Notes under the pieces: model-generated
What the model was told of the DNA's origin: nothing
The model's input: only the letters and a program-made list of their open reading frames with translations
The model's database searches: none
IMG/VR virus record: IMGVR_UViG_3300028394_000057
Coordinates: 27,336 to 91,335 of that record
Direction: 5' to 3' (one strand)
Length of the DNA stretch: 64,000 nucleotides
Source: a virus
Translations under genes and position numbers: made by a program
Shown here: in pieces, positions 34,000 to 56,507 of the stretch
Layout: each line of letters starts with the position of its first letter
Numbering within the stretch: the first letter of the stretch is position 1

Positions 34000-34118
34000 T
34001 GTGTTCCTGTCTGTTTGTTCACAATGTGATACTTACATTATACCAGATATATGCTATAATTTACTTGTACCTGCCAAAAGGGGGTACAAAATAACTCGCT
34101 TAAAAGGAGATGATACAA

Positions 34119-34523
34119 ATGGTAATCTACACAGACCCATTCGCAGCACTTAGTCAGGAATTTGATAAGATGTTTGCACAACCAACAAGGGCTACATACC
34201 CACCCTACAACGTAATCCACTCAAAGGAAAAGAACGAATGGTATCTTGAGTTCGCTCTAGCAGGATTTGAGAAGGATGATGTAACCATCACAACAGATAA
34301 GAATGTTTTGACTGTTGCTGGTGAAACAAAAGAAGACAAAGAACTACCAGAGGATATCCGCTATGTTTATAAGGGCATTGCTGGTCGTAAGTTCACTCGT
34401 TCTTTTACTCTACCAGAATACGCTGAAGTCGCTAAGGCTGAATTGAAGCATGGTATTCTGACTATTGATTTAGTTATCAATGTTCCAGAGGAAAAGAAAC
34501 CTAAGACTATTATTATTAAGTAA
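34119..34523 (+). CDS. Small heat shock protein Hsp20
   Basis: YPPYNV, ALAGF, GIAGRKFTRSFTL, A.LKHGIL. Confidence 0.92.
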   Translation: MVIYTDPFAALSQEFDKMFAQPTRATYPPYNVIHSKEKNEWYLEFALAGFEKDDVTITTDKNVLTVAGETKEDKELPEDIRYVYKGIAGRKFTRSFTLPEYAEVAKAELKHGILTIDLVINVPEEKKPKTIIIK

Positions 34524-34530
34524 GTCGGAA

Positions 34531-34557
34531 GTCCTGGGTATGACAGTAAACTGCCCA
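34531..34557 (+). ncRNA. 3'-UTR H-type pseudoknot motif (copy after hsp20)
   Basis: GTC-C-TGGGTA-T-GAC-AGTAAAC-TGCCCA; same fold as five copies at 46.4-48.7 kb. Confidence 0.6.
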
Positions 34558-34583
34558 CCTAATAGATATGGTATAATAAGACA

Positions 34584-35039
34584 ATGGAAAACTTACTAGC
34601 ACAACTAAGAACGCTACTGGCAGATAACGTTGCCCTTAAATTTAAAGCACACGGATATCATTGGAATGTAGAAGGACATGATTTTTCACAATACCACAAA
34701 TTTTTTCAGAAAATCTATGAGGACTATGATGCTGCAACAGACACTTATGCAGAATGGCTTCGCATATTGAAAGAGTATGCACCATACAGACTAACAGATT
34801 TCTTTGACATGTCAACAGTTCCAGAACCAGTAATTGTTGGTGAACCACAGGGTATGCTGCATGACCTATATCTTTCAATTGAGGCACATATAGAAGCCTT
34901 GGTGATTGCAGGTGGTGTTGCAACAGAAGCAAAACAATACGGATTAGCAAATTTCTTTGCTGACCGTCAAACAGCCTCGCAGAAATTCTGCTGGCAAATT
35001 CGTGTAAGTCACGAAATGGAAATGGAGATAGAAAACTAA
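34584..35039 (+). CDS. dps: Dps / ferritin-like DNA protection protein
   Basis: HGYHWNVEG.DF...H..F...YE......D..AE; leaderless start. Confidence 0.88.
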   Translation: MENLLAQLRTLLADNVALKFKAHGYHWNVEGHDFSQYHKFFQKIYEDYDAATDTYAEWLRILKEYAPYRLTDFFDMSTVPEPVIVGEPQGMLHDLYLSIEAHIEALVIAGGVATEAKQYGLANFFADRQTASQKFCWQIRVSHEMEMEIEN

Positions 35040-44723: not shown

Positions 44724-44957
44724 GGGTTTACTCTTTCTCTAGGTTATATATCTATGATACAGGATACCCCTGACATTTGCAATAGTTCTGGGGAAAATGT
44801 TATGCTTTCGTAATCAACCAGGATGTTTACAGGTTTACATAATCATGGGGAAATTGTTATAGCATCGTAATACTACCCAATGTTTATTAGTTTACATAAT
44901 TATTTTCTGCGCACAAAACCAGGGCAGTCAGATTGCTCCAACCACCCTGGTCCCCTA

Positions 44958-45134
44958 TTATCCCTATATGTCAGCCAAAACATTTCTAGCAGTCTCAACA
45001 AACTCATTGAATTCGTCTTCACGCTTTAGTCTCATCTCTATTAGTTTCAATACTTCTAGAGTAGGCATTTGATTTATACCCTTGACTTTTTTGAAACCGT
45101 CAATCATGGACAAGACGATTTCTTTGTCAGTCAT
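44958..45134 (-). CDS. Hypothetical protein (58 aa, not in track)
   Basis: MTDKEIVLSMIDGFKKVK... read manually. Confidence 0.45.
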
Positions 45135-45363
45135 TTACTTCTACCACTTCTATCATTTGATAAAGGTCATTATACTTTACGCTGTTGTATAGAATTTCCA
45201 GTAGTTCGTGATGAGCATAGTGAACCATGTCTTCCATTGTTCGTGGTTCCAGAGTTTCGCCTTCTTCAAGTTCGCTTTCAAGATACTCTCGTTCATTCTC
45301 GGTGTATCCATCATCTTCAAACTCAAAGTCCATTGTGATTTGTGCTCTAAGCATTTTAGGCAT
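45127..45363 (-). CDS. Acidic hypothetical protein
   Basis: AGGAG RBS before MPKMLRAQ. Confidence 0.55.
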   Translation of the reverse strand: MPKMLRAQITMDFEFEDDGYTENEREYLESELEEGETLEPRTMEDMVHYAHHELLEILYNSVKYNDLYQMIEVVEVND

Positions 45364-45706
45364 ACTTCTTCTCCTGCTTCTCCCAGTATTCGTCCTGAGC
45401 AATCATACTATCCAAATCGCTAATGCGACCTTCAATACAAGCAATAGCAAATCTGCTCAATGCTTTTGTGTGTAGTTCGTTTTCTAGTATTGCTAGTTCT
45501 TCTCTGTGTTGTTCCAACATAGTTTTTTCCAAGTCTTCTTCTCTTTCCTTATACATAGTTAGATAAATGTTTGCTTGTTCTGCTTCCCATTCATCGTGGG
45601 TAGGGCAGTAATCTTGATTGCCTTCGCAGATGTCGCAGAATGAATGGCAGTCAAAACTACCGTGATGTTTTGGACATTCTACTCTTTCGCAATCGCAATC
45701 ACTCAT
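45356..45706 (-). CDS. Cys-rich hypothetical protein
   Basis: CDC...CPKH...DCH.FC.IC....CPTH. Confidence 0.55.
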   Translation of the reverse strand: MSDCDCERVECPKHHGSFDCHSFCDICEGNQDYCPTHDEWEAEQANIYLTMYKEREEDLEKTMLEQHREELAILENELHTKALSRFAIACIEGRISDLDSMIAQDEYWEKQEKKYA

Positions 45707-45875
45707 TATCTTCTTCTTCTTCGTCTGCTTCTAGTTCTTCAACTTCAATAGAATAAACTCCGTCATAGTGTAGGTCATCTTCCCACTTCCAACCAATCGC
45801 TTCTGCTTCTGCTTCGCTATCTGCTTCTACTTCGTTGCTGAACTCAACAATGGTCTTTACATAGTATTTTGGCAT
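45699..45875 (-). CDS. Very acidic small protein (58 aa, not in track)
   Basis: MPKYYVKTIVEFSNEVEADSEAEAE...; downstream of boxed promoter 45923. Confidence 0.6.
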   Translation of the reverse strand: MPKYYVKTIVEFSNEVEADSEAEAEAIGWKWEDDLHYDGVYSIEVEELEADEEEEDNE

Positions 45876-45932
45876 TTGTTATCTTTCTGTTAGGGGGTGT
45901 TGTGTTTCTATTATAGGGGATACCACTGACAT

Positions 45933-46241
45933 CTAGGACATCATAGACGCTTTTTCAAGCATCTCGTCATAGAGTATCTTGGAATTATCATAGGATAGTT
46001 TGTCTTCTAGGTTGCTCTTGATAGTTCTGAGCATTCGCAGATAGGACTGGAACTCAGGACCACTGGTATCGTGCCAACCACGCTCCGCACTGTCCCATAG
46101 TTGTCTCTCTAATGCTTCTATCCCCCAAGTGTAGAATTGCCTAGTCTGCCATTGTTCTAGGTCATTTCCGTCAGGGTAGATGTAAGGAGCATCTTCTTCA
46201 TCATAAACAGGGGTAAGGATAATAGTTTCGTTTTCATTCAT
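45933..46241 (-). CDS. Hypothetical protein
   Basis: Leaderless start after boxed promoter 46261. Confidence 0.6.
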   Translation of the reverse strand: MNENETIILTPVYDEEDAPYIYPDGNDLEQWQTRQFYTWGIEALERQLWDSAERGWHDTSGPEFQSYLRMLRTIKSNLEDKLSYDNSKILYDEMLEKASMMS

Positions 46242-46415
46242 AAGTCAATTATACAGACTACCACTGACAAAAGCAATAGGCTTGGGGAAATCGTAACCCT
46301 TTCGTAATCAAGGTTTTTTGTTTATATAAACTATCTAAAATTTTGCGCACCGATTTGCCCACTTTGTCAAGTAGGAAATGGTGAGCAGTTTGAAATCTTG
46401 CTCAGGATTGTTTTA

Positions 46416-47429
46416 CTATACGGAAGCCAAAACCAAGTTCATCAAACGGTTTTTCTCAGCGTTGATTACAGGGTCAAAGCCAGAAGCAGAAGCGTAAATA
46501 CTTTCGTTGTTTGTGCCACGAGCATTACGATACCAGTCTAGGCGTTCTGTTAGAGCATTCATAGCACCCCAAGCAGTTCCAGCAATGGTGTTGTTGTATG
46601 TGCCAGTGTAGATAGATTGGATTAGTTCAATCTTATCAGACCACTTCTTCATAGAACCCTTGCTGTCCTTAGTTGGCATTGGATACGCTTTTAGAACAAT
46701 GTCGTTGAATTGCTGATTTGTGATTTCAGTTTCAATCATAGACTTAGCAAGAATGTCAAACTCGTCTAGGTAGTGATTAGCCAAGCCCAACGCTTCACGA
46801 GCAACAGCAATTTTACCCTCTGCGGTTTGTGTGTGTCTAATCTTGAATGATTGCTTCAAACCCTTTTTACCTTTTAGAGAAGATAGAGCAAGGTTGAGAG
46901 TGTTAGCACATACAACACGAACAGGAGTAATAGACGCTTGGATAGCGATACTTCCATCGTGGCTTGTGTTTAGTAGCAGGTATGACTTGACAACATCAGA
47001 CACGCCATTAGGGTCAAGGATAGTTTCACGCTCTAATGCGATTGAACCGAATACTTGTCTGCCACCCTTGATTGAACCAGCAGTTTCCCAACGACCGCCA
47101 CCATCTAGCAGGTTATCACCAAAAGAAAACAAGTCTTCATTTTGTAATGGAACATAACGCTCACCAACGACACCAAGAATGTCTGTCTGCTCTGCGTTGA
47201 ATGGATTAGTTCGTGATACGAATGAGTAGTTTCTATCGCTAGTGAAACCAGCAGGAACAACAACATCTTCAAGTCTGACATTCCAGTTGTCTAGGCTTGC
47301 GAGTGATAGCATTTCTGCGGTAGAAACTTCTTCATTGAATACAGTTCCTAGATTATGCCAAGCAGGTTGGCGGAGTGAAGCAAAACTAGCCTGACCAGTT
47401 GCTTCGTTGATTTCTAATTCGTGAGCCAT
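46416..47429 (-). CDS. DUF932 / TIGR03299-like phage-plasmid protein
   Basis: MAHEL...PAWH.LG, Y.P.QN, ETAGS..GG, SHDGS, RVVCANTL, RHT, GTAWG..NA.TE; start reset to 47429 (GAAAGG RBS). Confidence 0.85.
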   Translation of the reverse strand: MAHELEINEATGQASFASLRQPAWHNLGTVFNEEVSTAEMLSLASLDNWNVRLEDVVVPAGFTSDRNYSFVSRTNPFNAEQTDILGVVGERYVPLQNEDLFSFGDNLLDGGGRWETAGSIKGGRQVFGSIALERETILDPNGVSDVVKSYLLLNTSHDGSIAIQASITPVRVVCANTLNLALSSLKGKKGLKQSFKIRHTQTAEGKIAVAREALGLANHYLDEFDILAKSMIETEITNQQFNDIVLKAYPMPTKDSKGSMKKWSDKIELIQSIYTGTYNNTIAGTAWGAMNALTERLDWYRNARGTNNESIYASASGFDPVINAEKNRLMNLVLASV

Positions 47430-47696
47430 AGGGACTACACCTTTCATTGTTGGATTTATTTGATAGTCAATTATCCCACGATTTCGGGGATTTGTCAAGT
47501 GTTTCGTAAAACAATTTTGCATTCTTTACCATTTCGTTACTTTTCGGGGCGCAGAAAAATCCCCCTGCTACTTTCGGGATTGTGTCCAGACTTCACAGGG
47601 GGATTGTAAGCAGTTTAGACACTTGCTTAGGTGTTTGGCTAACACAAGCCCTGTGATTTACCCTTACGGAACAGGGGGCTAGGGGAAGCCAATGGT

Positions 47697-48134
47697 TTAT
47701 AGCAAATCAAGAACAGAGTTGTATGTGCTTGATGTGATTGTTTCCTGAGTGGTTAGTTTTAGAAGCGATAGTGTCTTCTCCAACTTTTCCTTTTTGTCCC
47801 TGTTCTGCCAAGTGTCAGGGTCGCTAGGCTTCTCTGGCTTTGTGCCAATCTTAGCAACGATTTCCTTGCCAACTGCGATAGAAACAGAACCACGATAATC
47901 GCTGTTGATAGAGATGTTGTCTTCTTGATTACCATAGTCGCTGTAATCAACAATAGACTTTTTGTTTTTGCTAACCAAGTCAATTAGGTCTGCTGTGAAA
48001 GAAACAATCTCTTTCTTGTATGCTGAAAGCAACTTTGGATAATCTGCTTCTGCCTTAGCAATTTCTGCTAACTTGTTCTCAATCATCTCTACTACTACTG
48101 ATGTTGGGAGTTTTACGGATACGGAACGAGCCAT
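47697..48134 (-). CDS. Hypothetical early protein
   Basis: TTTACA-17-TATAAT promoter at about 48178-48205. Confidence 0.65.
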   Translation of the reverse strand: MARSVSVKLPTSVVVEMIENKLAEIAKAEADYPKLLSAYKKEIVSFTADLIDLVSKNKKSIVDYSDYGNQEDNISINSDYRGSVSIAVGKEIVAKIGTKPEKPSDPDTWQNRDKKEKLEKTLSLLKLTTQETITSSTYNSVLDLL

Positions 48135-48250
48135 AATGTTTTACTACTTTCTATTAGTGGGTTTTTGTATAATACAATTATACAGGATTTAGGGGGATTT
48201 GTAAATAGGCAGTTTAGACATTTGCCTAGATGTTATAGTTCTGTTATGAA

Positions 48251-48408
48251 CTACTTGGCAGTTGTCCAGCGTGGCTGTCCAGCAACATCAAGTTTGATAC
48301 GGACAGAGCCGTTTGCGTTCTTGATTACTTCCTGAACAGTGCCAACAACGCCAGACTTCTGGGTTGCGAACTGTGAGCCAACAGATGGAATGGTAAATGA
48401 ATTAGCCA
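48251..48408 (-). CDS. Small SH3-like early protein
   Basis: VGSQF.T.KSGVVG.V.E; TTGACT-17-TATACT promoter; start approximated at MANSF. Confidence 0.6.
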
Positions 48409-48749
48409 TTTTTTGCTTCTTTCTACTTGTAGTTTTTCTCAACTTTTGTTGATAATACAAGTATAAGGCATAATCGGGGAAAAGTCAAGGGTATTCGTAA
48501 AAGATTTTTGTATCGTTATCATTTCGTTATCAAAATCGGGGCGCAGAATTTTAGTGAGCAGTTTATACACTTGCTCAGGTGTTAGGTATGTTATTATTCA
48601 GCAGTATTACCTCAATACCCTTTACTTGCCACTGCCTATTATGTTTTCTCCTTTTATCAAACATAAAAACTTTACCCAACTTTACCGCTTGGTGCGAGAG
48701 CAGTTTCAACACTTGCTCAGGTGCTTAGGCAGAAAAGAAAGGGAACTGC

Positions 48750-49133
48750 CTAAGATGTGATGTTCCAGTCATCTAATTCCCAGTGAGAGTTGTCTAGGTA
48801 TTCTTCTGCTACTCCCAAAGGATTTTCGGTAATGCCAAAATCTTCTGCTAACTTATCAGTATCAAAACCGATAGGGACAGTAAAGGTTGCTTGAACTTTG
48901 AAAGTCAATTCCATTTCAACTTCTTCTGTTAGTGTAAAGCCAAAGATTTCTGCTATCTCTGTTGCTGTGTCAAAGTCAATCTGCGAATTGGTTAGGGCTT
49001 CTTTCAACCAGTCTTCAAGTGTTTCTGTGTTTCTGGTCATCATACCTAATGCTTGCCAAAGGTCTTTGTTTTCTGTTGTTAGTTTTTCTAGTTCTTGTTT
49101 TAGTGCTGATAATACAGGGTGGTTGCTTTCCAT
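48750..49133 (-). CDS. Acidic hypothetical protein
   Basis: Boxed promoter 49176. Confidence 0.6.
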   Translation of the reverse strand: MESNHPVLSALKQELEKLTTENKDLWQALGMMTRNTETLEDWLKEALTNSQIDFDTATEIAEIFGFTLTEEVEMELTFKVQATFTVPIGFDTDKLAEDFGITENPLGVAEEYLDNSHWELDDWNITS

Positions 49134-49190
49134 TGTTTTCTTCTTTCTTTTAGTGTATCTCTATTATAAACCTAACCACTGACATTGTGA

Positions 49191-49567
49191 TTAGTCTTCG
49201 TCTTCTTCGTCATAGTCTTCACAGGTATCTCCACAGGCAGAGAAGCAAAGTTCGCATTCGTCTTCTTCTTGTTCTGCCCCTTGTGGAATAAGTGTTGTGA
49301 AGCCATCATTAGCATCTTCGTCTTCGCCTACGCTATGGACACCCTGAATAAACTTCAAGGCACAACTTTCGGCATACCACTTTTTTAGAGTGTCAAACAT
49401 TTCTGCTGGTTTCATTTCACTTCTGGTTCTAATCTCGTCATACTGATACTCACGCATAAGTTCTACTTGCTTGTCATCCATAAGCACATAGATTTTGTGG
49501 CAGGTATCAAAAGCGATACCCTGAGCAAACTGAACTGACATCTCTACATCATCCCAATAATCTTCCA
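49191..49567 (-). CDS. Acidic hypothetical protein
   Basis: IAFDTCHKIYVLMD, W...SC.LKFI; boxed promoter 49608; start approximated at MEDYW. Confidence 0.6.
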
Positions 49568-49693
49568 TTGGTTTCCTTTCTTCTTTGTATTTCAATTATA
49601 CAGGCTACCCCTGACATTTCGGGGATATTTAGCGTGTTTCGTAAATGTGTTATGAGTTTGTTATAAAAATCTGCGCACCCCGAAGGGTAGGAA

Positions 49694-49876
49694 CTAAGCC
49701 CTAGCCTTATCCCATTCATACTGCTCAATAAAGTTCTTAGCAGATAACCAAGCACGATACATTATTTCGTCATCAGGGCTTCCCTGTATGTCCCAACGCA
49801 ATAGTCTTCCTATTGTGTGTGAGTTTCTGTCTTCTAAGTCTGCTAATACTATTTCGTATGCTTTCTGTAATTCCAT
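49694..49876 (-). CDS. Hypothetical protein
   Basis: ORF track; RBS upstream. Confidence 0.5.
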   Translation of the reverse strand: MELQKAYEIVLADLEDRNSHTIGRLLRWDIQGSPDDEIMYRAWLSAKNFIEQYEWDKARA

Positions 49877-50147
49877 TATGCTTTCCTAACTATAATTACT
49901 TCTTCACAAGTTTCACACTCTAAGGCGTAGTCTGTTGGTTTTTCCCAACTAGAATACTTTGCGATTACTATGTCGTGGTCAAAGTGTTCTGCTAAATCCA
50001 TTAGTATCCTGCTTTCTCTAAAATTGCTAATAGGGCTTCTGCTTCTTCTTCTGTTAGTTTTGCTATTGCTTCTTCGTTGATTACATTATCAAAGTTTATC
50101 ATTTGTTTCCTTTCGTTAGAGTTCTATTATATTTGCTACCACTGACA

Positions 50148-50348
50148 TTAGACTTCATCTTGCCATTTACCACAATTTTCACAAACTGCATCTCCAATAC
50201 CCATGTTCCAAATCAAAGGCTCAAAGGAACAAGAATTACATTTATGATAAGACACTCCATACAACTCCATGTCTTTTTCAGACATCTCATCCCAATAGAT
50301 TTTATGTGTTTTAGTTTCACACTCTTTACAATTTATACTAACTGACAT
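50148..50348 (-). CDS. Small zinc-finger protein
   Basis: CKEC, CNSC, CENCG. Confidence 0.55.
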   Translation of the reverse strand: MSVSINCKECETKTHKIYWDEMSEKDMELYGVSYHKCNSCSFEPLIWNMGIGDAVCENCGKWQDEV

Positions 50349-50565
50349 CACTTAGCCACTCATCACAAACTGAACAAGCCCACTCTAAGTTTTCTGCTTG
50401 TGTAAAATCGTGGTCGTTCTTCTCAAACCACTCTGCGAAACTAGGTCTGTTCCAATCAGCACAACTGTCAAGGTAGTTGTAAAAGTGTTCGTCAAAACTT
50501 TCGTTATCTACAACAACCATACCTTCGCTATCGCCATAACTTCCGTCAAATGCTACATACAACAT
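50338..50565 (-). CDS. Acidic hypothetical protein
   Basis: YVAFDGSYG; AAGGAG RBS; TTGACT-17-GATAAT promoter. Confidence 0.6.
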   Translation of the reverse strand: MLYVAFDGSYGDSEGMVVVDNESFDEHFYNYLDSCADWNRPSFAEWFEKNDHDFTQAENLEWACSVCDEWLSDVS

Positions 50566-50908
50566 AGGGGTTCTCCTTCTTTATCTTATAATCCATTATC
50601 CCAGAAAATCAGGGAAAAGTCAAGGCTATTCGTAAATGAGTTATGGGTTTGTTATCAAAATCGCTGCGCAGCCTTTCGCCTACTATTGTAGGAAAAAGAC
50701 TACTAAGATTATTAGTATTAGTGTGCCGATTATCTGTAATGTATTCATACTCAATTATCTCACGATTGTCTTAGTAAGTCAAGAGCCTTTTTGTGTTCCA
50801 TGATGTCTGCACAATAGCGACACAAATCAGTTCCTTCCCAATTTTCGTCAATACATGCAACAGGGTCATTGTCATCTTCTACATTTTGACATGCAATCCA
50901 AGCCATTT

Positions 50909-51427
50909 TTACAACTCCACTTCTTCGTCATTGTGAGTAAAGTAATCATTAGAGCAGTCAATACACATACCCAGTTCTTCAGCGTGTATGTCTTTAGACA
51001 TTAGTTCTCCACAGTTATCACAAGGCAGGGTATGAACAAAATCAAAATCAAAATAAGCACCCATTGGCTCATCGTGAGAGCCACGCCTAGCAGTTAGTTT
51101 CTTGTTTGGAATGTCAAGTGTCCAAGTGATAGTGAAATCTCCGTTGATAGTCAAAATACTATCAAGTTTATCAAGCGTAGTTTTAGCAGAGCCTTCCAAG
51201 TTTTGCCAAGTCATTCTTCTGCCCTTGATTAGAATAAAGTCATCTTCTGCAATCTCATTTAGTTTCTGCCACTCACCAATAACATAAGCGGTATCTTCTT
51301 TCTGCATCTCATAGCAATCGCCATAGCAGTATTCCATAGGCACAAACTCGCCTAGTTCTTCGTTGTAATCTTCGCAAGTGCAATCTGAAGATAGTGTTGC
51401 AATCATTACATCTAAGTTCTGTTCCAT
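50909..51427 (-). CDS. Hypothetical protein with SHDEP motif
   Basis: Start reset to 51427 (AAAGGAAA RBS after boxed promoter 51469); W....G, GDFT, SHDEPMG. Confidence 0.6.
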   Translation of the reverse strand: MEQNLDVMIATLSSDCTCEDYNEELGEFVPMEYCYGDCYEMQKEDTAYVIGEWQKLNEIAEDDFILIKGRRMTWQNLEGSAKTTLDKLDSILTINGDFTITWTLDIPNKKLTARRGSHDEPMGAYFDFDFVHTLPCDNCGELMSKDIHAEELGMCIDCSNDYFTHNDEEVEL

Positions 51428-51458
51428 TAGGGTTTCCTTTTCTTTTGATAATACTATT

Positions 51459-51572
51459 TTACTTGATACCACTGACATTATGACAATCGCAAGAGCAACA
51501 ATTACAATCACTAAAATTGTCATTACAGGTAGCGTGATAACCTAAATCACATCTAGGGGTAATGTAAATCAT
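51459..51572 (-). CDS. 37-aa Cys-rich micro-protein (not in track)
   Basis: MIYITPRCDLGYHATCNDNFSDCNCCSCDCHNVSGIK; GAAAGGA RBS after boxed promoter 51609. Confidence 0.5.
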   Translation of the reverse strand: MIYITPRCDLGYHATCNDNFSDCNCCSCDCHNVSGIK

Positions 51573-51967
51573 AGTCTTCCTTTCTTGATAATACTATTTT
51601 ACACCTAACCACTGACATTGGCGGTATTTAGGGGGAGTTTCGTATGTATCGTAACATAAGCGTTACAATCGGGTGCGCAGCCCGAAGGCTACCGTTTATA
51701 GGTAATCGAAAACATCTCCGTCAAATCTGGATGTTTCTAGTTCTTCCATTAGTTGAAAAACATCTATTTCGCCATTGTGATACTGGTCAAATAGTTCTTG
51801 GGCTTCTTCCATTTATCTCTCCTTGTTTGATAATACTATTATAGAACTAACCACTGACATTGCAGGGGTCATCACATTCAGCGTCATGTTCGTGGTCACA
51901 CACATAACAAACCATGAACTCATTTAGGTCTTCTGGGTCGTAGTCATCTAAACATTCTTTACAGGTA

Positions 51968-52267
51968 TTAAGCATTTAGCACACTTTCTACGATGTAGTC
52001 TTCTAAACCAAAATACTTTACTAAGTCAATAGCAGGAACTCCGTCTTCGCCTGTCAAATCTGGCAGGGTATTTAGAATAATAGGTTGATTAGCATTATCT
52101 CCATTTACAAAGTCAAGAGCAAATACCATTTCTTCTGCCAACTCTCTAAGGTCAATACGATTACCATAAGTAGAGCGTAAGCCCTTACCAATAAAGATTT
52201 GATATATTTGTTCTTCTAGGGGATAACTCTCAATGCCTAGTAGATTTAGTTTAGTTGATTTAGCCAT
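51968..52267 (-). CDS. Hypothetical protein
   Basis: AAGGAG RBS. Confidence 0.55.
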   Translation of the reverse strand: MAKSTKLNLLGIESYPLEEQIYQIFIGKGLRSTYGNRIDLRELAEEMVFALDFVNGDNANQPIILNTLPDLTGEDGVPAIDLVKYFGLEDYIVESVLNA

Positions 52268-52437
52268 TAGTTATACTCCTTGATAGCCTTGATGATGTTT
52301 GATTTGCGACTACCCTTGCGAGTGGCAGGAGTAGCGACTAGGTGCTTATTTAGCAACAGACTTCTAAAAAGTTCTGCCGAGTGAGCGTTGCGAGTAGCCT
52401 GTGCTACTTTATTTAGTGGTGGCTTTCTTTTCTTCAT
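52267..52437 (-). CDS. Small basic protein
   Basis: Leaderless MKKRKPP after boxed promoter 52457. Confidence 0.55.
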   Translation of the reverse strand: MKKRKPPLNKVAQATRNAHSAELFRSLLLNKHLVATPATRKGSRKSNIIKAIKEYN

Positions 52438-52716
52438 AGTCCTATTATACATTACACCACTGACATTGTGGGGATTTGGGAAACATTTCATAACTATCGT
52501 AACTCAATTGTGACCTTTCGGGTGCGCAGAAAAATTGCCACCCCGAAGGGTAGCAATCAAAACCTAAAAAGGTTTGAGTGTGTCTATTGTTCTAGACAAC
52601 TTGACGATAACATCTTTTTGGTTATCAACAATTTTCTTATACTGACTAAGCAAATAACTCTGCCAGAATAAATAACCAACTAGAATAACTCCAATAACTG
52701 CGAATACAATTTCCAT

Positions 52717-52905
52717 TTATCTCTCCCAACAAGCGTCAAAAAACTTACCAGATAAAAATCTGTCGTTGTCATTTTTGAACATCTCAGCAAACTCATTTAC
52801 TAAATCGCTAAAAATCTGCTCACCCTCTAAACCCAAACTTTCAAGAGCAGGTCTAAATGCTGAGAGTATGTCAGCAGTTTCAACATAGTCCTTGCGTGTC
52901 ATCAT
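52717..52905 (-). CDS. Hypothetical protein
   Basis: MMTRKDYV..A.IL...F..DN.RF...KF..AC motif. Confidence 0.6.
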   Translation of the reverse strand: MMTRKDYVETADILSAFRPALESLGLEGEQIFSDLVNEFAEMFKNDNDRFLSGKFFDACWER

Positions 52906-53114
52906 TAGTTATCTTCCTTACCTGCGTTGATTAGGATTGTGATTAGTTCTTGGCGTTCTTCGGTTGATAATTCCAAAGCCAGTTCTAATGCGTGGCTTGT
53001 TCCGTGTCCAGTGTGATTGCGAGTTCTGATTGTTAGATTGAACCAGTTTTCACTTCCAAAACTAAAACCGCCAAAAGTGTATCTTTCATTTTTATTTTCC
53101 ATTTTATTTTCCAT
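52905..53114 (-). CDS. Hypothetical protein
   Basis: Boxed promoter 53145. Confidence 0.55.
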   Translation of the reverse strand: MENKMENKNERYTFGGFSFGSENWFNLTIRTRNHTGHGTSHALELALELSTEERQELITILINAGKEDN

Positions 53115-53154
53115 TTCTTCTTGATGTTATTATTATACAACCTACCACTGACAT

Positions 53155-53331
53155 TTAGAGTTGGTCAGCAGTATAGTCTTTTAGTTCTTCACGCCAATCG
53201 TCAGGGTCTTCACCCAGATAGTTCAGGGTATCCAAGTTTAGTGGCATTACGCCATCATAGTCTTTACAGGTATAGCAGATGTGGTCATCTATGCTAAATA
53301 GGGAGTAGCAAAATACGCAGATGTTTTTCAT
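53155..53331 (-). CDS. Zinc-finger micro-protein (58 aa, not in track)
   Basis: MKNICVFC...ICYTCKDYDGVM. Confidence 0.6.
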   Translation of the reverse strand: MKNICVFCYSLFSIDDHICYTCKDYDGVMPLNLDTLNYLGEDPDDWREELKDYTADQL

Positions 53332-53748
53332 TTATTTCTCATTTCTTTTCTTGATAATACTATTATACCCCCTACCACCGACATTTGGCAATAGGCAATT
53401 TTCGGGGCGCAGGTCTGCGCACCCCGAAGGGTAATGAGTTAGCAATCTCCGAAGAGTTCACTCTCAACAGTAGACCAGTCATCTTCATACTCGTTCAGGT
53501 CTTGGTCGCCCTCATAGTCATCAGACTCGTAGTTATCGCTGTATAGTAGCATAGTTGCCTTTCTTGGTTGATAGAATAATTATACTTTGAACCACTGACA
53601 TCGGGGAAAAACCAGGAGAAACGTAATTACCTTCGTAAATCGTTTCGGGGCGCAGGTTAGCGCAGAAAGTTGCGCAGAAATTTTGGTGCAATTATTTATT
53701 GTATAAAATAAATAACTACAACCAAAACTAAAACTACACAAATAAAAA

Positions 53749-53949
53749 TCACTCTTCATCTTCCTGCTCTTGCAAGAAATCAATATATTCATCAACAGAA
53801 ATTTGATACATGATTGGGTCGCAGTTTGCAAGAATTTGAGATGCATAAAAATCTGAGTATCCAATTTTGTAAGGTGGATAAAGTTCGTCTAGCATTTCGT
53901 CATGCATGGCTTCTAGTTCTTCTTGGCTGTGCTGTTCTCTAATGTCCAT
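53749..53949 (-). CDS. Acidic hypothetical protein
   Basis: DEMLDE.Y...KIG...F.AS.IL..CDPI.Y. Confidence 0.6.
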   Translation of the reverse strand: MDIREQHSQEELEAMHDEMLDELYPPYKIGYSDFYASQILANCDPIMYQISVDEYIDFLQEQEDEE

Positions 53950-54034
53950 TAGTTTTGCTCCTCTGCTTGATAGTTGAAAAGATAATCTAAAAATTCTTCT
54001 AGTGCTTGACTTTGTAGTGTGTGAAAACTTAGCA

Positions 54035-54235
54035 TTAGTTTTGCTCCTTGTTTTTGTCTAGTTGGTAAAGTGAACCTAGCGTATAGGCTTGGTCAAATAT
54101 TTGTCTAAAGTTTACAACTTGATAAATGTCAATGCCAGCATCATCAGCATAAGATTTTACCTTATTCCAATAAGTCCAAAAGTCTTGCTCACGCTTGGCG
54201 TAAAACTTTTCCATATTATCCATTTTATTTTCCAT
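54035..54235 (-). CDS. Hypothetical protein
   Basis: Boxed promoter 54263. Confidence 0.5.
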   Translation of the reverse strand: MENKMDNMEKFYAKREQDFWTYWNKVKSYADDAGIDIYQVVNFRQIFDQAYTLGSLYQLDKNKEQN

Positions 54236-54750
54236 TTCTTTAGATTTCAATTATACAACTAACCACTGACATTTATCCTAGCGGACACGCTTGGCTTCAG
54301 GGTGTTCAATTAGAAATAACATTAGGTCTAATTGGTGAATAGCAGAAATAACGGTTTCTCCGTTGCTAGTGTATTCAAATAGGGTGTATCTCTTGCTAGG
54401 GTTTTTGTGTAATCTCATTAGTTATCTTTCTTTTTAGTTAGTTCAATTATAGCGGATACCACTGACATCTTACCAGCGGTAAGCGTGTTCGTGTTCATTC
54501 ACTAACTTTTCAAACTCTTCGCTTGTAGCGAACTCAATTACAGTTCCACACTTGGCACATTCGGCAGTATCTTTACTCAATTTATTTCTCATTTCTTTTT
54601 ATCTACTTACAGTATAAACCTAACCACTGACATTTAGGCGGACAAACACACATTTTTATGCCTTTATAACAATAGTGTTATAAATGTTTTTCGGGCGTGT
54701 CGTTCGGGGCGCAGAAAATTTTGGGTAGTTAGCCCAAAACTTTTTTACTT

Positions 54751-54969
54751 TTACTTTTTGCGTGAGCGAATTATAAATACTAACGCTAAAATAAATGCTA
54801 AGATAAAAAACTGAACGCTTACAAATCCCCAAATACCAGACTGAACTTTATCAGTAGCGTCATCAGTAAATACTGATAAATAATTTAGAGTGTCAGAGAT
54901 GAAGAAAGAAAAGATACCAGCAATCAACGCTGACATTACAATTCCAATTTTTAGAAAGTTTTTTTCCAT
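54751..54969 (-). CDS. Small two-TM membrane protein
   Basis: Two hydrophobic helices, basic tail. Confidence 0.55.
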   Translation of the reverse strand: MEKNFLKIGIVMSALIAGIFSFFISDTLNYLSVFTDDATDKVQSGIWGFVSVQFFILAFILALVFIIRSRKK

Positions 54970-55285
54970 TAGTTATTTTCCTTTTTGTCAGTTTTGATTT
55001 GAGAGATAAAGTCTTCTCTCATTGACTTTTGGATTTCTGCCAAAGCAATTTTCCAGTCTTCCATTATTTATTCTCCATCTTATTTACAATTTGAGCAATC
55101 AACGCTTTTTGCTTTTGAGTTAGTTGTCCAAAACATAGACCATAAGCATAGGCAACAGGATTTTCACCAGCAACGCCATCTTTTAGTCTTAGTTCGTTCA
55201 TTAGTCTAAAAGTGTCAAAGTCTTTATCTAACATTTATTTTCCTATTCTTTTCTTACTTACAATTATACAGGATACCACTGACAT

Positions 55286-55444
55286 TTATTCAGCAGTTTC
55301 CAATTCATCAGCATACATTTCAGCAATAAAGTCATACTCTTTTACTGCCTTGCTGATTTCCATTAGACCATCATACTCTTTACAAGTAGGGCAGATGTAA
55401 GCCCAAGTTTTAGTTCCGTCATAGACACAGATAATTCCAACCAT
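55286..55444 (-). CDS. Zinc-finger-like micro-protein (52 aa, not in track)
   Basis: MVGIICVYD...ICPTCKEYDGLM; similar to 53155-53331. Confidence 0.55.
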   Translation of the reverse strand: MVGIICVYDGTKTWAYICPTCKEYDGLMEISKAVKEYDFIAEMYADELETAE

Positions 55445-55642
55445 TTTTTTTATTTCCTATTCTTTTTGTAGATTATTATTTAGTTATGCTTTTTAGTTTT
55501 GCGAACATTGCCATAAGTTCATCAAACTCACTTGCGAGCATTGTGTCGCTTTCAGCGATAGCCATTAGTTCTTTGTATCTTGCTTTGATTTCGTAGTTGG
55601 TCATTTGTTAGTCCTTTCTTTGACTACTATTACACTACCAGC

Positions 55643-55871
55643 GACCACTGACATTTAGGGGATGTTTAGGGGTGTGTTGCTATTTCGTTATCGAACTGTT
55701 ATTTTTTGCCTAGTAGATACTTTACAAGGTTCTTTTCAGCAGTAGTTAGGGGGATACCTGCTCTGGCATACTTAGCAAGCATTATGGTTAGTTCTGTCTT
55801 TTTATCTTTCATAGTATTACTATACACTAGACCACTGACATTTAGGGGATGTTTAGGGGTGTGTTGCTATT
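55643..55871. repeat. 42-bp exact direct repeat flanking a one-gene cassette
   Basis: GACCACTGACATTTAGGGGATGTTTAGGGGTGTGTTGCTATT at 55643-55684 and 55830-55871. Confidence 0.9.
55699..55812 (-). CDS. 37-aa basic micro-protein (not in track)
   Basis: Leaderless MKDKKTELTIMLAKYARAGIPLT... Confidence 0.5.
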   Translation of the reverse strand: MKDKKTELTIMLAKYARAGIPLTTAEKNLVKYLLGKK

Positions 55872-56176
55872 ATGTTATCTATTTGTTATACTTGGGGGCG
55901 CAGCCCGAAGGCTAGACCCTAGTAGTCAGAGTCATCAGCAAACCAATCATCACCGCCTATGTATGGCGAGTAAGCCACACCTGTAACCTCATCACGCCCA
56001 CACTTGTGGTCTTTGCTGAATGGAAGAGAAACCCAGCCCTCGCAAGAGTCGCAGAAAATGTGCTTCATAGTTTTTACCTTTCGTTATAAGATAACCTTAG
56101 CAGAACTAACATACATTGTCAATAGCAACACACCTATCGTTATCATCTTGTTACATATCGGGGGGCGCAGAAAAAT

Positions 56177-56251
56177 TGGGGTGTCTAGAGAGAATTGAAC
56201 TCTCATTGCTTAGACCACAACTAAGCGTTCTACCATTGAACTATAGACACC
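56177..56251 (-). tRNA. tRNA-His(GTG) with encoded G-1 and CCA
   Basis: G-GTGTCTA / TAGACAC-C-CCA; CTTAG-TTGTGGT-CTAAG anticodon arm; GTTCAATTC T loop. Confidence 0.9.
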
Positions 56252-56277
56252 ATATTTTATTTAGTATTGTTATTGCG

Positions 56278-56386
56278 TGGTCTAAGTGAGTTACGCTCTC
56301 ACACTCTTACAATCTAGTAGGTGCTTATCTGTTTTACCAGTGTAGCGTTCCTATCGCTGTTGTCGCTCTCTATGAGCCATTAGACC
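56278..56386 (-). ncRNA. tRNA-like RNA with expanded anticodon region
   Basis: GGTCTAA/TTAGACC-A acceptor, GCTC/GAGC D stem, GTGAG-N7-CTCAC T-like arm. Confidence 0.55.
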
Positions 56387-56507
56387 TTATTTAGTTATCA
56401 ACTTTTATTTCTTATAGTATTACTATACACCTAACCACTGACATTTGACGCACCAACACACCTTTATTACATTTCGTTATCAATTAGTTATAATTGGGGG
56501 CGCAAAG

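Follow-up and report, generated by a model that had tools for sequence, protein, structure and literature searches.

A compact H-type pseudoknot of 27-28 nt, here called the knot, occurs exactly six times in the window (the whole 64-kb stretch of phage DNA that was analysed), and is an RNA element without an Rfam family. Here and in the viral contigs that carry it elsewhere, the knot lies in sense orientation, typically behind the end of a gene. Its context suggests a non-terminating cap for the RNA 3' end that cutting further downstream would leave on the upstream transcript, a reading that is given about an even chance of being right.

Six copies of one pseudoknot and its fold

The original prediction had described five copies on the minus strand (46382-48724) and one on the plus strand, and all six are present at those places and with those sequences. 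They were scored with a covariance model in which S1 alone is encoded as paired. The six copies score 34.5-46.6 bits (E 1e-12 to 8e-9), and the best match beyond them reaches 9.3 bits (E 0.8), so the motif is far beyond chance. No seventh copy was found across the whole 91,335-bp genome. A comparison of the full 2.7-kb region with GenBank phage DNA found nothing similar; this freshwater phage has no close isolate there. The copies, their upstream partners and one further element are:

34110..34523, plus strand: hsp20 gene, HSP20 domain (Pfam PF00011, E 3e-17), upstream partner of copy 6
34531..34557, plus strand: copy 6; S1 GUC/GAC (3 bp), S2 UGGGUA/UGCCCA (one U-G); 34.5 bits; starts 7 nt past the TAA of hsp20
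46382..46409, minus strand: copy 1; S1 AAUC/GAUU, L1 C, S2 UGAGCA/UGCUCA, L3 UCAAAC; 44.4 bits; starts 6 nt past the TAG of the DUF932 gene
46416..47522, minus strand: DUF932 gene (Pfam PF06067, E 4e-49), upstream partner of copy 1
47555..47603, minus strand: terminator-like element, read from the sequence, starting 3 nt behind copy 2
47607..47634, minus strand: copy 2; S1 ACAC/GUGU, S2 UAAGCA/UGCUUA; 44.2 bits; starts 62 nt past the TAA of the 145-aa ORF
47697..48134, minus strand: 145-aa ORF with no assigned function, upstream partner of copy 2
48206..48233, minus strand: copy 3; S1 ACAU/AUGU, S2 UAGGCA/UGCCUA; 35.8 bits; starts 17 nt past the TAG of the 52-aa ORF
48251..48409, minus strand: 52-aa ORF conserved in many relatives, upstream partner of copy 3
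48555..48582, minus strand: copy 4; S1 ACAC/GUGU, S2 UGAGCA/UGCUCA; 46.6 bits; 114 nt behind copy 5
48697..48724, minus strand: copy 5; S1 GCAC/GUGU (one G-U), S2 of just 5 bp (UGCUCU); 37.4 bits; starts 25 nt past the TAG of the 127-aa ORF
48750..49133, minus strand: 127-aa ORF, upstream partner of copy 5

The statement that five copies lie shortly after a stop codon was roughly right, with distances of 6, 7, 17, 25 and 62 nt. Copy 4 follows copy 5 and no gene; no ORF of at least 50 aa separates the two, and a 29-codon mini-ORF terminates at a UGA within S2 of copy 4. The true start of the DUF932 gene is probably the ATG at 47429, since its alignments in relatives begin at residue 20-32 and a promoter (47498-47470) falls within the long ORF. 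Copy 2 is the sole copy in the window with a terminator-like follower, an 8-bp G+C-rich stem (UCCCCCUG/CAGGGGGA) with a 28-nt loop and then five U, which the consensus terminator scan missed owing to the long loop. Behind five of the six copies, neither a cut site nor a terminator could be recognised, and only promoters are seen. The -35 hexamer of one such promoter (48205-48177) adjoins the 3' end of copy 3, and copy 6 is followed at 12 nt by a promoter-like sequence, TGnTATAAT.

The knot consists, in this order, of S1 with 3-5 bp, a first loop that is the single base C, S2 with 5-6 bp (URRGYA/UGCYYA), a junction of one base and an A-rich loop ending AAAC. The linker C, the AAAC, a G-C at S2 position 4 and an A-U at S2 position 6 are invariant, and two-sided changes are seen in all four S1 pairs and in three S2 pairs. 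In 55 family sequences from relatives, 94.9% of cells are paired and the covariation score is 0.56 (0.19 when shuffled), a value reached by 0 of 500 shuffles; pairing falls to 24-38% when the partners are slid by one to three columns. The 150 matches from unrelated viral contigs are 96.9% paired, with a covariation score of 0.41 vs 0.11. Both sets uphold the observation that the two stems covary around an invariant linker C and AAAC. G-U pairs are frequent and would read A-C on the opposite strand, so that they fit the sense RNA only. Covariation establishes the fold itself at the level of sequence; the C may further make tertiary contacts in the deep groove of S2, and the adenines in the shallow groove of S1.

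Some variation is tolerated around this core. One copy has a hairpin inserted at the junction base, and AAACU is mostly followed by G, a minority of copies having A instead (UACCCA or UACUCA variants). A role as functional stop codon was considered for the URR triplet of S2 and rejected, since UGG variants are common (e.g. copy 6) and the 3' ends of only 9 ORFs fall within it.

At the gathering score, Rfam 15 finds three tRNAs only in the window. At E up to 10, both the region 46200-48900 and the 61 nt around copy 4 give only chance-level matches to unrelated families, and preQ1-I, pistol, hammerhead and twister are among the families that the knot does not match. Together with the covariation in both stems and the strict strand bias described below, these scans bear out the description of a structured sense-strand RNA of no named family. 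A literature search for the conserved 10-mers returned unrelated primers only, and the literature on exonuclease-resistant RNA in phages held nothing relevant. The motif is not visibly described in two catalogues of candidate structured RNAs, as far as a keyword check reaches.

The knot occurs hundreds of times in viral contigs, including those of unrelated phages of several bacterial phyla. Isolate carriers include Roseobacter phage SIO1, Lentibacter phage ICBM1, and Clostridium and Lactobacillaceae prophages. A pattern scan of bacterial and archaeal genomes gave 120 loci that are mostly chance matches; S1 is paired in only 25 of them, a few of which may still be due to chance.

Position behind stop codons and ahead of tRNAs

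Random orientation in relatives had been named as one outcome that would speak against the structure. The sense bias is strict: the gene's strand carries 197 of 198 unique family copies and all 142 strict matches. In two sets, of 180 and 143 copies, a co-directional stop precedes the knot by no more than 40 nt in 118 and 92 cases, respectively, and a convergent gene end within 40 nt is seen for just 4 and 8 copies. The distance from stop to knot has its mode at 5-6 nt and is never 0-4 nt, in two independent sets, and the distance from the knot to the next gene start is broadly spread, with medians of 122-156 nt. About one third of the copies (about 35%) lie >30 nt from the nearest callable ORF end, the ORFs being simple longest-ORF calls made with no gene finder. 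TAA is the commonest stop ahead of knots, and tandem copies without an intervening gene occur in relatives.

In 41 distinct contexts the knot precedes a tRNA on the same strand, the tRNA starting 3-18 nt and mostly 3-7 nt behind it; a knot just downstream of a tRNA was never found. These positional rules, the 5-nt limit behind stops and the tRNA on the downstream side only, are newly found. None of the six window copies has a tRNA behind it. A type III hammerhead (Rfam, 50.5 bits) begins within the last 3 nt of one knot, and two further hammerhead cores, recognised by their core motif, come after knots. The predicted hammerhead cuts are 5-12 nt behind the knot.

Homology between relatives stops at the 3' edge of the knot, suggesting that the knot belongs to the upstream gene. 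At copy 1, 31 HSPs with relatives end at 46377-46385, which is this edge, and the edges of copy 2 coincide with starts or ends of homology blocks. The orthologous DUF932 gene end was compared in 80 relatives, of which 64 have the knot and 16 a G+C-rich stem-loop, in several cases with a U-run. A tRNA lies no more than 150 nt behind the DUF932 end in 37 of the 64 relatives with the knot vs 0 of the 16 without it.

RNA evidence comes from assembled contigs of six metatranscriptome runs, which represent small parts of the region and may include DNA carry-over. The RNA-library contigs have loose ends at 47606 and 48723, and such contigs cannot show RNA ends, strand or level. When the contigs of four runs are compared, some continue from the upstream gene through copy 5, and others lose likeness at the knot edges.

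The sequence behind the knot has little in common with that of a terminator. The first two bases are C-rich with ~1% G, T amounts to just 0.16-0.46 per position, and no U-run is present behind knots. Terminator-like hairpins follow only 3-4% of copies, and folding of the 35 nt downstream of knots does not surpass that of shuffled sequences (median z +0.16, n=302). Where tRNA genes lie 3-7 nt behind the knot there is no room for a promoter, so the polymerase must read through, and the knot is most likely a non-terminating element.

A proposed cap for the upstream RNA and its alternatives

Among the roles first suggested for the knot, a 3'-exonuclease block fits best. The knot would form the tail of the message from the upstream gene, and RNA polymerase would read through it. 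The transcript may then be cut downstream by RNase P at a tRNA, by a hammerhead ribozyme or by a host endonuclease, or it may terminate further on. Trimming of the upstream fragment by 3'-to-5' exonucleases would halt at the knot, with no protein needed, and the upstream message would survive. By being kept at least 5 nt behind the stop, the knot would never have to be unfolded by the terminating ribosome. In relatives, an ordinary terminal stem-loop or a terminator occupies the same slot. Points against the cap are that many structures are unwound by RNase R, that five of the window's six copies lack a recognisable cut site or terminator behind them, and that about one third of copies lie >30 nt from an ORF end. 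Moreover, the strong conservation of S2, C and AAAC across phage phyla could reflect recognition by a conserved host factor instead.

The knot lies directly ahead of tRNAs and hammerheads, and its architecture resembles that of coremin (short hairpin, first-loop C, A-rich AAACU spacer and a loop-spacer pseudoknot). RNase J is present in the hosts of some carriers (Clostridium, Rhodobacteraceae and probably Actinobacteria). These features would suit a roadblock in the 5'-to-3' direction, like coremin, that stops RNase J or a 5'-scanning RNase E and protects a downstream gene, tRNA or ribozyme. Such a role is unlikely, however, since the knot tracks the upstream stop tightly and the next gene start broadly, is inherited with the upstream gene with homology stopping at its 3' edge, and gives way in relatives to stem-loops of the terminator type, whose protective effect is on upstream RNA. 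Coremin's downstream hairpin, needed against Xrn1, is also absent, and a tRNA 3 nt downstream would be freed by RNase P anyway. No more probable than this is that the knot is a specific site or signal for a conserved host machine, e.g. the terminating ribosome, and acts on termination, recycling, re-initiation or coupling and not on decay. In the ribosome version, a stop codon positioned in the A site would place the knot at the mRNA entry channel. The hard 5-nt lower limit and the 5-6 nt mode between stop and knot are consistent with such a signal, and frameshifting pseudoknots in contact with the ribosome are spaced in the same way. Phages of different phyla show hardly any variation in S2, C and AAAC, and coremin is known to stall ribosomes (PMC10520033). 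However, about 35% of the copies are >30 nt from a stop, copy 4 and the tandem copies in relatives follow no gene, and read-through or frameshifting is excluded at copy 1 by its TAG and then in-frame TAA; the 5-nt limit is equally explained by the need to stay folded. Slightly further down in likelihood is a protein-free roadblock working two ways on two machines, which would cap cut 3' ends and also insulate neighbouring genes at the mRNA entry of the ribosome. If so, there would be no re-initiation, no unfolding of a downstream tRNA or ribozyme and no spread of decay, and genes would form terminator-free, cassette-like units that are shuffled at the knot.

It is improbable that the knot is a transcription terminator or a pause signal working without a U-run. 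It fills the slot between the stop codon and the next promoter in the window, and this slot is held by intrinsic terminators in 16 relatives, so the position implied by the suggested "terminator substitute" stands. Termination does not, given the tRNA genes 3-7 nt behind with no room for a promoter, the C-rich bases behind the knot with no U-run, and the terminator-like hairpin that copy 2 has of its own. The invariant unpaired C and AAAC in a compact pseudoknot, a size and topology that recall preQ1-I and the P1-pseudoknot part of pistol, and the adjoining hammerhead ribozymes would agree with a tiny ribozyme that cleaves itself or an aptamer that binds a ligand (riboswitch). This role, likewise among those first suggested, is very improbable, since a 61-nt query has no family match even at E up to 10 and the knot follows genes of unrelated function, precedes promoters and controls no particular gene class. 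In addition, a ribozyme needs no hammerhead or RNase P site 3-12 nt away, and the Shine-Dalgarno sequence is outside the fold. Equally remote is a function at the DNA level, with the knot as a 28-bp shared sequence for exchange of gene cassettes between phages and the RNA fold as secondary. Homology blocks do begin and end at knot edges, and the gene-less tandem copies look like emptied cassettes, but compensatory changes and G-U pairs in interleaved stems are unneeded for exchange and indicate that a single strand with a defined polarity is folded. A freely varying S1 would spoil homology, and recombination at conserved sequences is an expected by-product.

Other candidates were rejected. ACCA, as in a tRNA-like 3' tail, is the commonest 4-mer from the knot's last base, yet at ~10% it is as frequent as the separate C, C and A preferences predict. 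A ToxI-like antitoxin decoy has no linked toxin and an integron attC-like site no linked integrase, and the gene-end and tRNA rules argue against both.

In bacteria, RNA ends are protected by hairpins; eukaryotes and their viruses use xrRNAs and triple helices. If the knot is a protective cap, a sequence-conserved 28-nt pseudoknot with this role in phages of several bacterial phyla would define a class of phage RNA elements that is both new and very common, and would explain stable messages upstream of co-transcribed tRNAs or ribozymes without terminators. The knot would also serve annotators as a marker of gene ends and strand, and would offer synthetic biology a tiny portable RNA-stabilising part.

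Comparison with known RNA elements

Coremin (xrRNA-C) and its Watson-Crick variant are found in beny-, cucumo- and other RNA viruses (PMC6546385, PMC10520033, PMC10321173). Coremin and the knot share a hairpin of 3-5 bp (S1 of the knot, with 96% of cells paired and all four pairs changed on both sides), an unchangeable pyrimidine (C) as first loop base and an A-rich spacer containing AAACU. In both, loop bases pair with the bases right after AAA to form a small H-type pseudoknot, and the setting is 3' untranslated, often with several copies. Coremin acts as a protein-free mechanical roadblock, as is proposed for the knot. Of the spacer AAACUA, essential in coremin, the knot has an invariant AAACU, mostly with G and less often with A as the next base. 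However, the coremin loop is YGAD or YGNNAD, with G required at position 2, whereas the knot loop is C-U-R-R-G-Y-A-W with an invariant U at this position. The second coremin stem has 3 pairs or is non-canonical, compared with 5-6 Watson-Crick pairs in the knot. Stalling of Xrn1 by coremin depends on a second hairpin immediately downstream, and none is conserved behind the knot. Coremin blocks a eukaryotic 5'-to-3' enzyme, whereas the context of the knot points to protection of upstream RNA in bacteria. For all its likeness to coremin and to the luteovirus pseudoknots, the knot lacks the features that define coremin.

Luteovirus frameshifting pseudoknots (BWYV type, 28 nt) have a critical C that crosses the deep groove, and the T2/T4 gene 32 leader pseudoknot is also comparable. 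The BWYV pseudoknot is discussed in PMC10321173. In size and topology these pseudoknots match the knot. Their first loop, of one or two bases, likewise has a critical C, and their last loop, rich in A and ending AAAC, lies along the shallow groove of stem 1, as is proposed for the knot. Also shared is a distance of 5-9 nt to the ribosomal A-site codon, a recoding-type spacing that about 40% of the knot copies show. Unlike the luteovirus type, the knot has no slippery sequence and no extended reading frame, lies behind stops and not inside genes, and has a longer stem 2; unlike the T2/T4 gene 32 pseudoknot, it is not a 5' leader operator. A -1 frameshift or stop read-through was rejected, since the TAG at copy 1 has an in-frame TAA next, TAA is the commonest stop, and one third of copies are >30 nt away.

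The 3' end of MALAT1 and MEN-beta consists of a triple-helical ENE and then the tRNA-like mascRNA, which is cut by RNase P. In MALAT1 this cut leaves a 3' end that has no terminator or poly(A) site and is shielded by structure. A structured element directly upstream of a tRNA-shaped RNase P substrate is shared with the knot in its 41 tRNA contexts. The MALAT1 fold is a U-rich stem-loop clamping an A-rich tail, and is eukaryotic and nuclear, whereas the knot is a 28-nt pseudoknot in phages, most copies of which have no tRNA behind them.

Bacterial terminal stem-loops (intrinsic terminator hairpins and REP elements) are barriers to 3' exonucleases. They share with the knot the position behind the stop, and they interchange with it at the DUF932 end (64 vs 16). 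The knot differs in being a pseudoknot that has no U-run, is non-terminating and is conserved in sequence across phyla. The PeSLs of T4-type phages are simple stem-loops with early promoters and belong to one phage group. Like the knot, they are repeated modules that flank small early genes at the edges of shuffled cassettes; the knot, in contrast, is common to unrelated phages and covaries as a pseudoknot.

Fold and distribution of the pseudoknot

The six sequences of the original prediction all occur in the window as written; scanned for the structure, neither the window nor the genome as a whole holds any others:

46382-46409, minus strand, copy 1, behind a DUF932 gene
47607-47634, minus strand, copy 2, behind a 145-aa ORF
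48206-48233, minus strand, copy 3, behind a 52-aa ORF
48555-48582, minus strand, copy 4
48697-48724, minus strand, copy 5, behind a 127-aa ORF
34531-34557, plus strand, copy 6, behind hsp20

Each copy is an H-type RNA pseudoknot with two stems, S1 and S2, and the following layout:

Layout of the knot, 5' to 3': S1, 3-5 bp; one base, C; S2 5' strand, U-R-R-G-Y-A; one base, A or U; S1 3' strand; 1-4 variable bases and AAAC; S2 3' strand, U-G-C-Y-Y-A

The six copies were aligned with 49 non-identical copies of relatives, chosen by sequence pattern and S2 pairing, with S1 pairing not a criterion. Standard pairs fill 94.9% of the cells in this alignment, and two-sided changes occur in all four S1 pairs and in three of the six S2 pairs. 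The covariation score is 0.56 versus 0.19 in shuffles (0 of 500 reach 0.56), and shifting the partner columns by 1-3 lowers pairing to 24-38%. The sense strand is the folded molecule, because the 25 G-U or U-G cells would become A-C mismatches on the opposite strand. A covariance model built from the alignment, with pairs encoded for S1 only, gives the six copies scores between 34.5 and 46.6 bits; in the 128 kb of strand searched, the best match after them reaches 9.3 bits. The loop lengths agree with those of classical H-type pseudoknots, with a single base to span the deep groove of the 5-6 bp stem and, in the last loop, five to eight A-rich bases to follow the shallow groove of the 4-5 bp one. 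By analogy with luteovirus pseudoknots, the invariant C and the adenines probably form tertiary contacts. In one copy (L245:6625-6672, plus strand) the one-base S2/S1 junction holds an extra 16-nt hairpin, which is compatible with the fold and resembles the tolerated insertions of real structured RNAs.

With the DUF932 protein whose gene directly precedes copy 1 as the query, 80 related viral loci were retrieved. These contain 142 strict knot copies, all on the strand of the gene, and 197 of 198 unique looser copies keep this sense orientation. The predicted structured sense-strand RNA at gene ends is borne out by covariation in both stems and by strand bias. An exact-pattern scan of viral contigs gave at least 120 loci, and the covariance model identified 157 copies in 100 of them. 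Both stems are again evident in the alignment of these copies (96.9% paired, covariation score 0.41 versus 0.11). The knot is also present in cultured phages, namely Lentibacter, Celeribacter and Clostridium tetani phages and Roseobacter phage SIO1, where it lies about 10 nt behind the ribonucleotide reductase gene. In bacterial genome records, S1 is paired too in 25 of 120 pattern matches, and where neighbours were checked they are prophage or mobile-element genes. Two Lactobacillaceae isolates have the gene order minor capsid, knot, scaffold protein, and further neighbours include ArdA, ArdC-like and DUF2958 genes.

Eight of these 25 loci are Candidatus Saccharibacteria MAG contigs (L085, L086, L132, L161, L171, L179, L192 and L193). 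They may be prophages, mobile elements or mis-binned phage contigs; in L193, the single one checked, a DUF2958 domain is encoded by the ORF immediately preceding the knot.

The knot had been assigned to no named family, and the window has no match to it in Rfam 15 at gathering score. The region of the knots gave no family match at E values up to 10, nor did a 61-nt stretch around copy 4 at the same limit with the most permissive filters. The conserved 10-mers of the knot returned only unrelated primers from the papers searched. The knot is a genuine RNA element that is widespread, uncatalogued and governed by sharp rules of position.

Position at gene ends

The knot is linked to the end of the gene before it: in the 40 nt preceding the knot, a co-directional ORF terminates in 118 of 180 family copies and in 92 of 143 copies from unrelated contigs, with convergent gene ends at only 4 and 8 copies, respectively. 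In both sets the stop-to-knot distance is never 0-4 nt, peaks at 5-6 nt and stays within 30 nt for about 65% of copies; distances from the knot to the start of the next gene are broadly distributed. Five window copies had been placed shortly after a stop codon, which holds at 6, 7, 17 and 25 nt, the remaining one being 62 nt away. In ribosomal frameshifting, a 5-nt spacing places a structure just outside the mRNA entry channel with the preceding codon in the A site. Such a spacing leaves the knot outside the channel, and a terminating ribosome therefore need not unfold it.

Likeness between relatives covers the upstream gene and ends at the 3' edge of the knot, where 31 HSPs stop (46377-46385). 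The knot is thus inherited together with the gene before it, and knots mark the borders of exchangeable gene modules and the junctions in the mosaic genomes of these phages. Ends of DNA likeness cluster at knot edges, at 46377-46385, 47602-47608, 47634-47642, 48553-48557, 48580-48586 and 48698-48699, and in RNA-library contigs from relatives the likeness is lost at 47606 and 48723.

Some knots stand in tandem with no gene between them, such as copies 5 and 4, 114 nt apart (48555-48724, minus strand), and three in a close relative (L002:1586-1863, plus strand). Such tandems could represent gene cassettes that were emptied, or small RNAs. In copy 4, the UGA within S2 closes a 29-codon mini-ORF. 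Just before copy 5 is a 7-bp hairpin (48726-48752, minus strand; UAGGCAG / CUGCCUA) with the pyrimidine-rich loop CCUUUCUUUU; the hairpin takes in the 127-aa ORF's stop codon. Hairpins of this kind, with an identical loop, also stand before knots in the relatives L005 and L064.

What follows the knot and its possible role

No U-run follows the knot, and the two bases after it are C-rich with about 1% G. Terminator-like hairpins lie behind only 3-4% of copies, and the 35 nt downstream fold no more stably than shuffles. A same-strand tRNA gene, mostly tRNA-Asp, begins 3-18 nt (mostly 3-7 nt) behind the knot in 41 distinct contexts, and no knot was found just behind a tRNA. One contig has a type III hammerhead (Rfam, 50.5 bits) that starts inside the final three bases of a knot, and hammerhead cores, as core motif only, follow two more knots, one in the same contig:

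L136:7541-7620, minus strand, hammerhead at the knot 3' end, with a second site in L136
L204:13746-13840, plus strand, hammerhead core at the knot 3' end, core motif only

The predicted hammerhead cuts lie 5-12 nt behind the knot. Given a tRNA or hammerhead directly behind it, cutting by RNase P or the ribozyme would leave the upstream RNA ending a few bases past the knot. In the window, most copies precede promoters, not cut sites.

The orthologous DUF932 gene end was compared among the 80 relatives. In 64 the knot lies 5-18 nt behind the stop, and in the remaining 16 a G+C-rich stem-loop occupies the same place, several of these being textbook intrinsic terminators with a U-run. The knot thus fills the slot of a terminal stem-loop. 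A tRNA lies within 150 nt downstream in 37 of the 64 loci with the knot versus 0 of the 16 without, although these loci are related and do not count as independent events. With a tRNA as close as 3-7 nt there is no space for a promoter, so the knot appears to be the version used where transcription must continue. This swap argues against a terminator and for a role that terminal hairpins would share, the protection of the 3' end of the upstream RNA.

We consider it an even chance that the knot is a read-through cap, which stops 3'-to-5' exonucleases at the 3' end of the upstream message. The knot would be transcribed as the tail of that message while RNA polymerase reads on, the transcript would be cut or ended further downstream, and exonucleases would trim the upstream RNA back to the knot and halt there. 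That the knot itself is a terminator is quite improbable, since the tRNAs 3-7 nt behind it require continued transcription. A block of 5'-to-3' decay shielding the RNA downstream is unlikely; it would suit the tRNA neighbours and the resemblance to coremin, but is hard to square with the link to the upstream gene and the swap for terminators. We hold it just as doubtful that the knot signals to the terminating ribosome or to another conserved host factor, for which the 5-nt rule and the sequence conservation speak, while a third of copies are far from any stop. A ribozyme or aptamer, or a DNA-level recombination site, would each be very improbable.

Coremin and the phage knot have in common a short hairpin, a first-loop pyrimidine, an AAACU spacer and a loop-spacer pseudoknot. 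However, two features that define coremin fail in the phage knot, the YGAD/YGNNAD loop and the required downstream hairpin, which has no counterpart here, and coremin blocks a eukaryotic 5'-3' enzyme. Membership was set aside for these reasons. The closest likeness in shape is to BWYV-type pseudoknots. In the proposed function, the closest analogues would be the terminal stem-loop of bacterial messages and the MALAT1 3' end, where a protective structure directly precedes an RNase P substrate. We rate that function as well constrained, and the knot would belong among RNA-end-protecting structures.

Early-gene promoters and the phage

The minus strand of 44754-56443, and only that strand, has about 20 copies of TGTCAGTGGT-N6-TATAAT. 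The motif gives 21 matches at up to 3 mismatches versus 1.4 expected, and 0 of 100 shuffles reach 21. It represents a phage-specific promoter class with a conserved spacer, ahead of nearly every small gene of this stretch, and may be where a phage regulator or sigma factor acts. Five exact copies of CTGCGCCCCGA (minus strand, at 47544, 48536, 53402, 53645 and 54704) lie about 60-90 nt upstream of promoters. With near copies there are 12 matches (up to 2 mismatches) versus 2 expected, which makes this the second repeated element lying upstream in the early-gene cassettes. The DUF932 ORF probably starts at ATG 47429 rather than 47522 (minus strand); the extension contains a strong promoter (47498-47470), and alignment with relatives begins only at residue 20-32.

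The source genome is a single contig of 91,335 bp with 36.5% G+C from a tailed phage, and encodes a minor tail protein, a DnaB-like helicase, a DnaE-like polymerase and tail fibres. Among cultured phages, large Streptomyces phages come closest, with protein identities of only about 50-55% (DnaE-like polymerase 55%, DUF932 about 50%), a kinship that contrasts with the low G+C and freshwater origin. The phage DNA is present in freshwater metagenomes, and the host is probably a low-G+C freshwater actinobacterium. Leaderless messages are common in Actinobacteria, and those of a ferritin/Dps-like gene and a 102-aa ORF look leaderless from their start sites. The ATG of each lies 6 nt behind a TATAAT, at 34584 (34572-34586, plus strand) and 46241 (46241-46256, minus strand), respectively.
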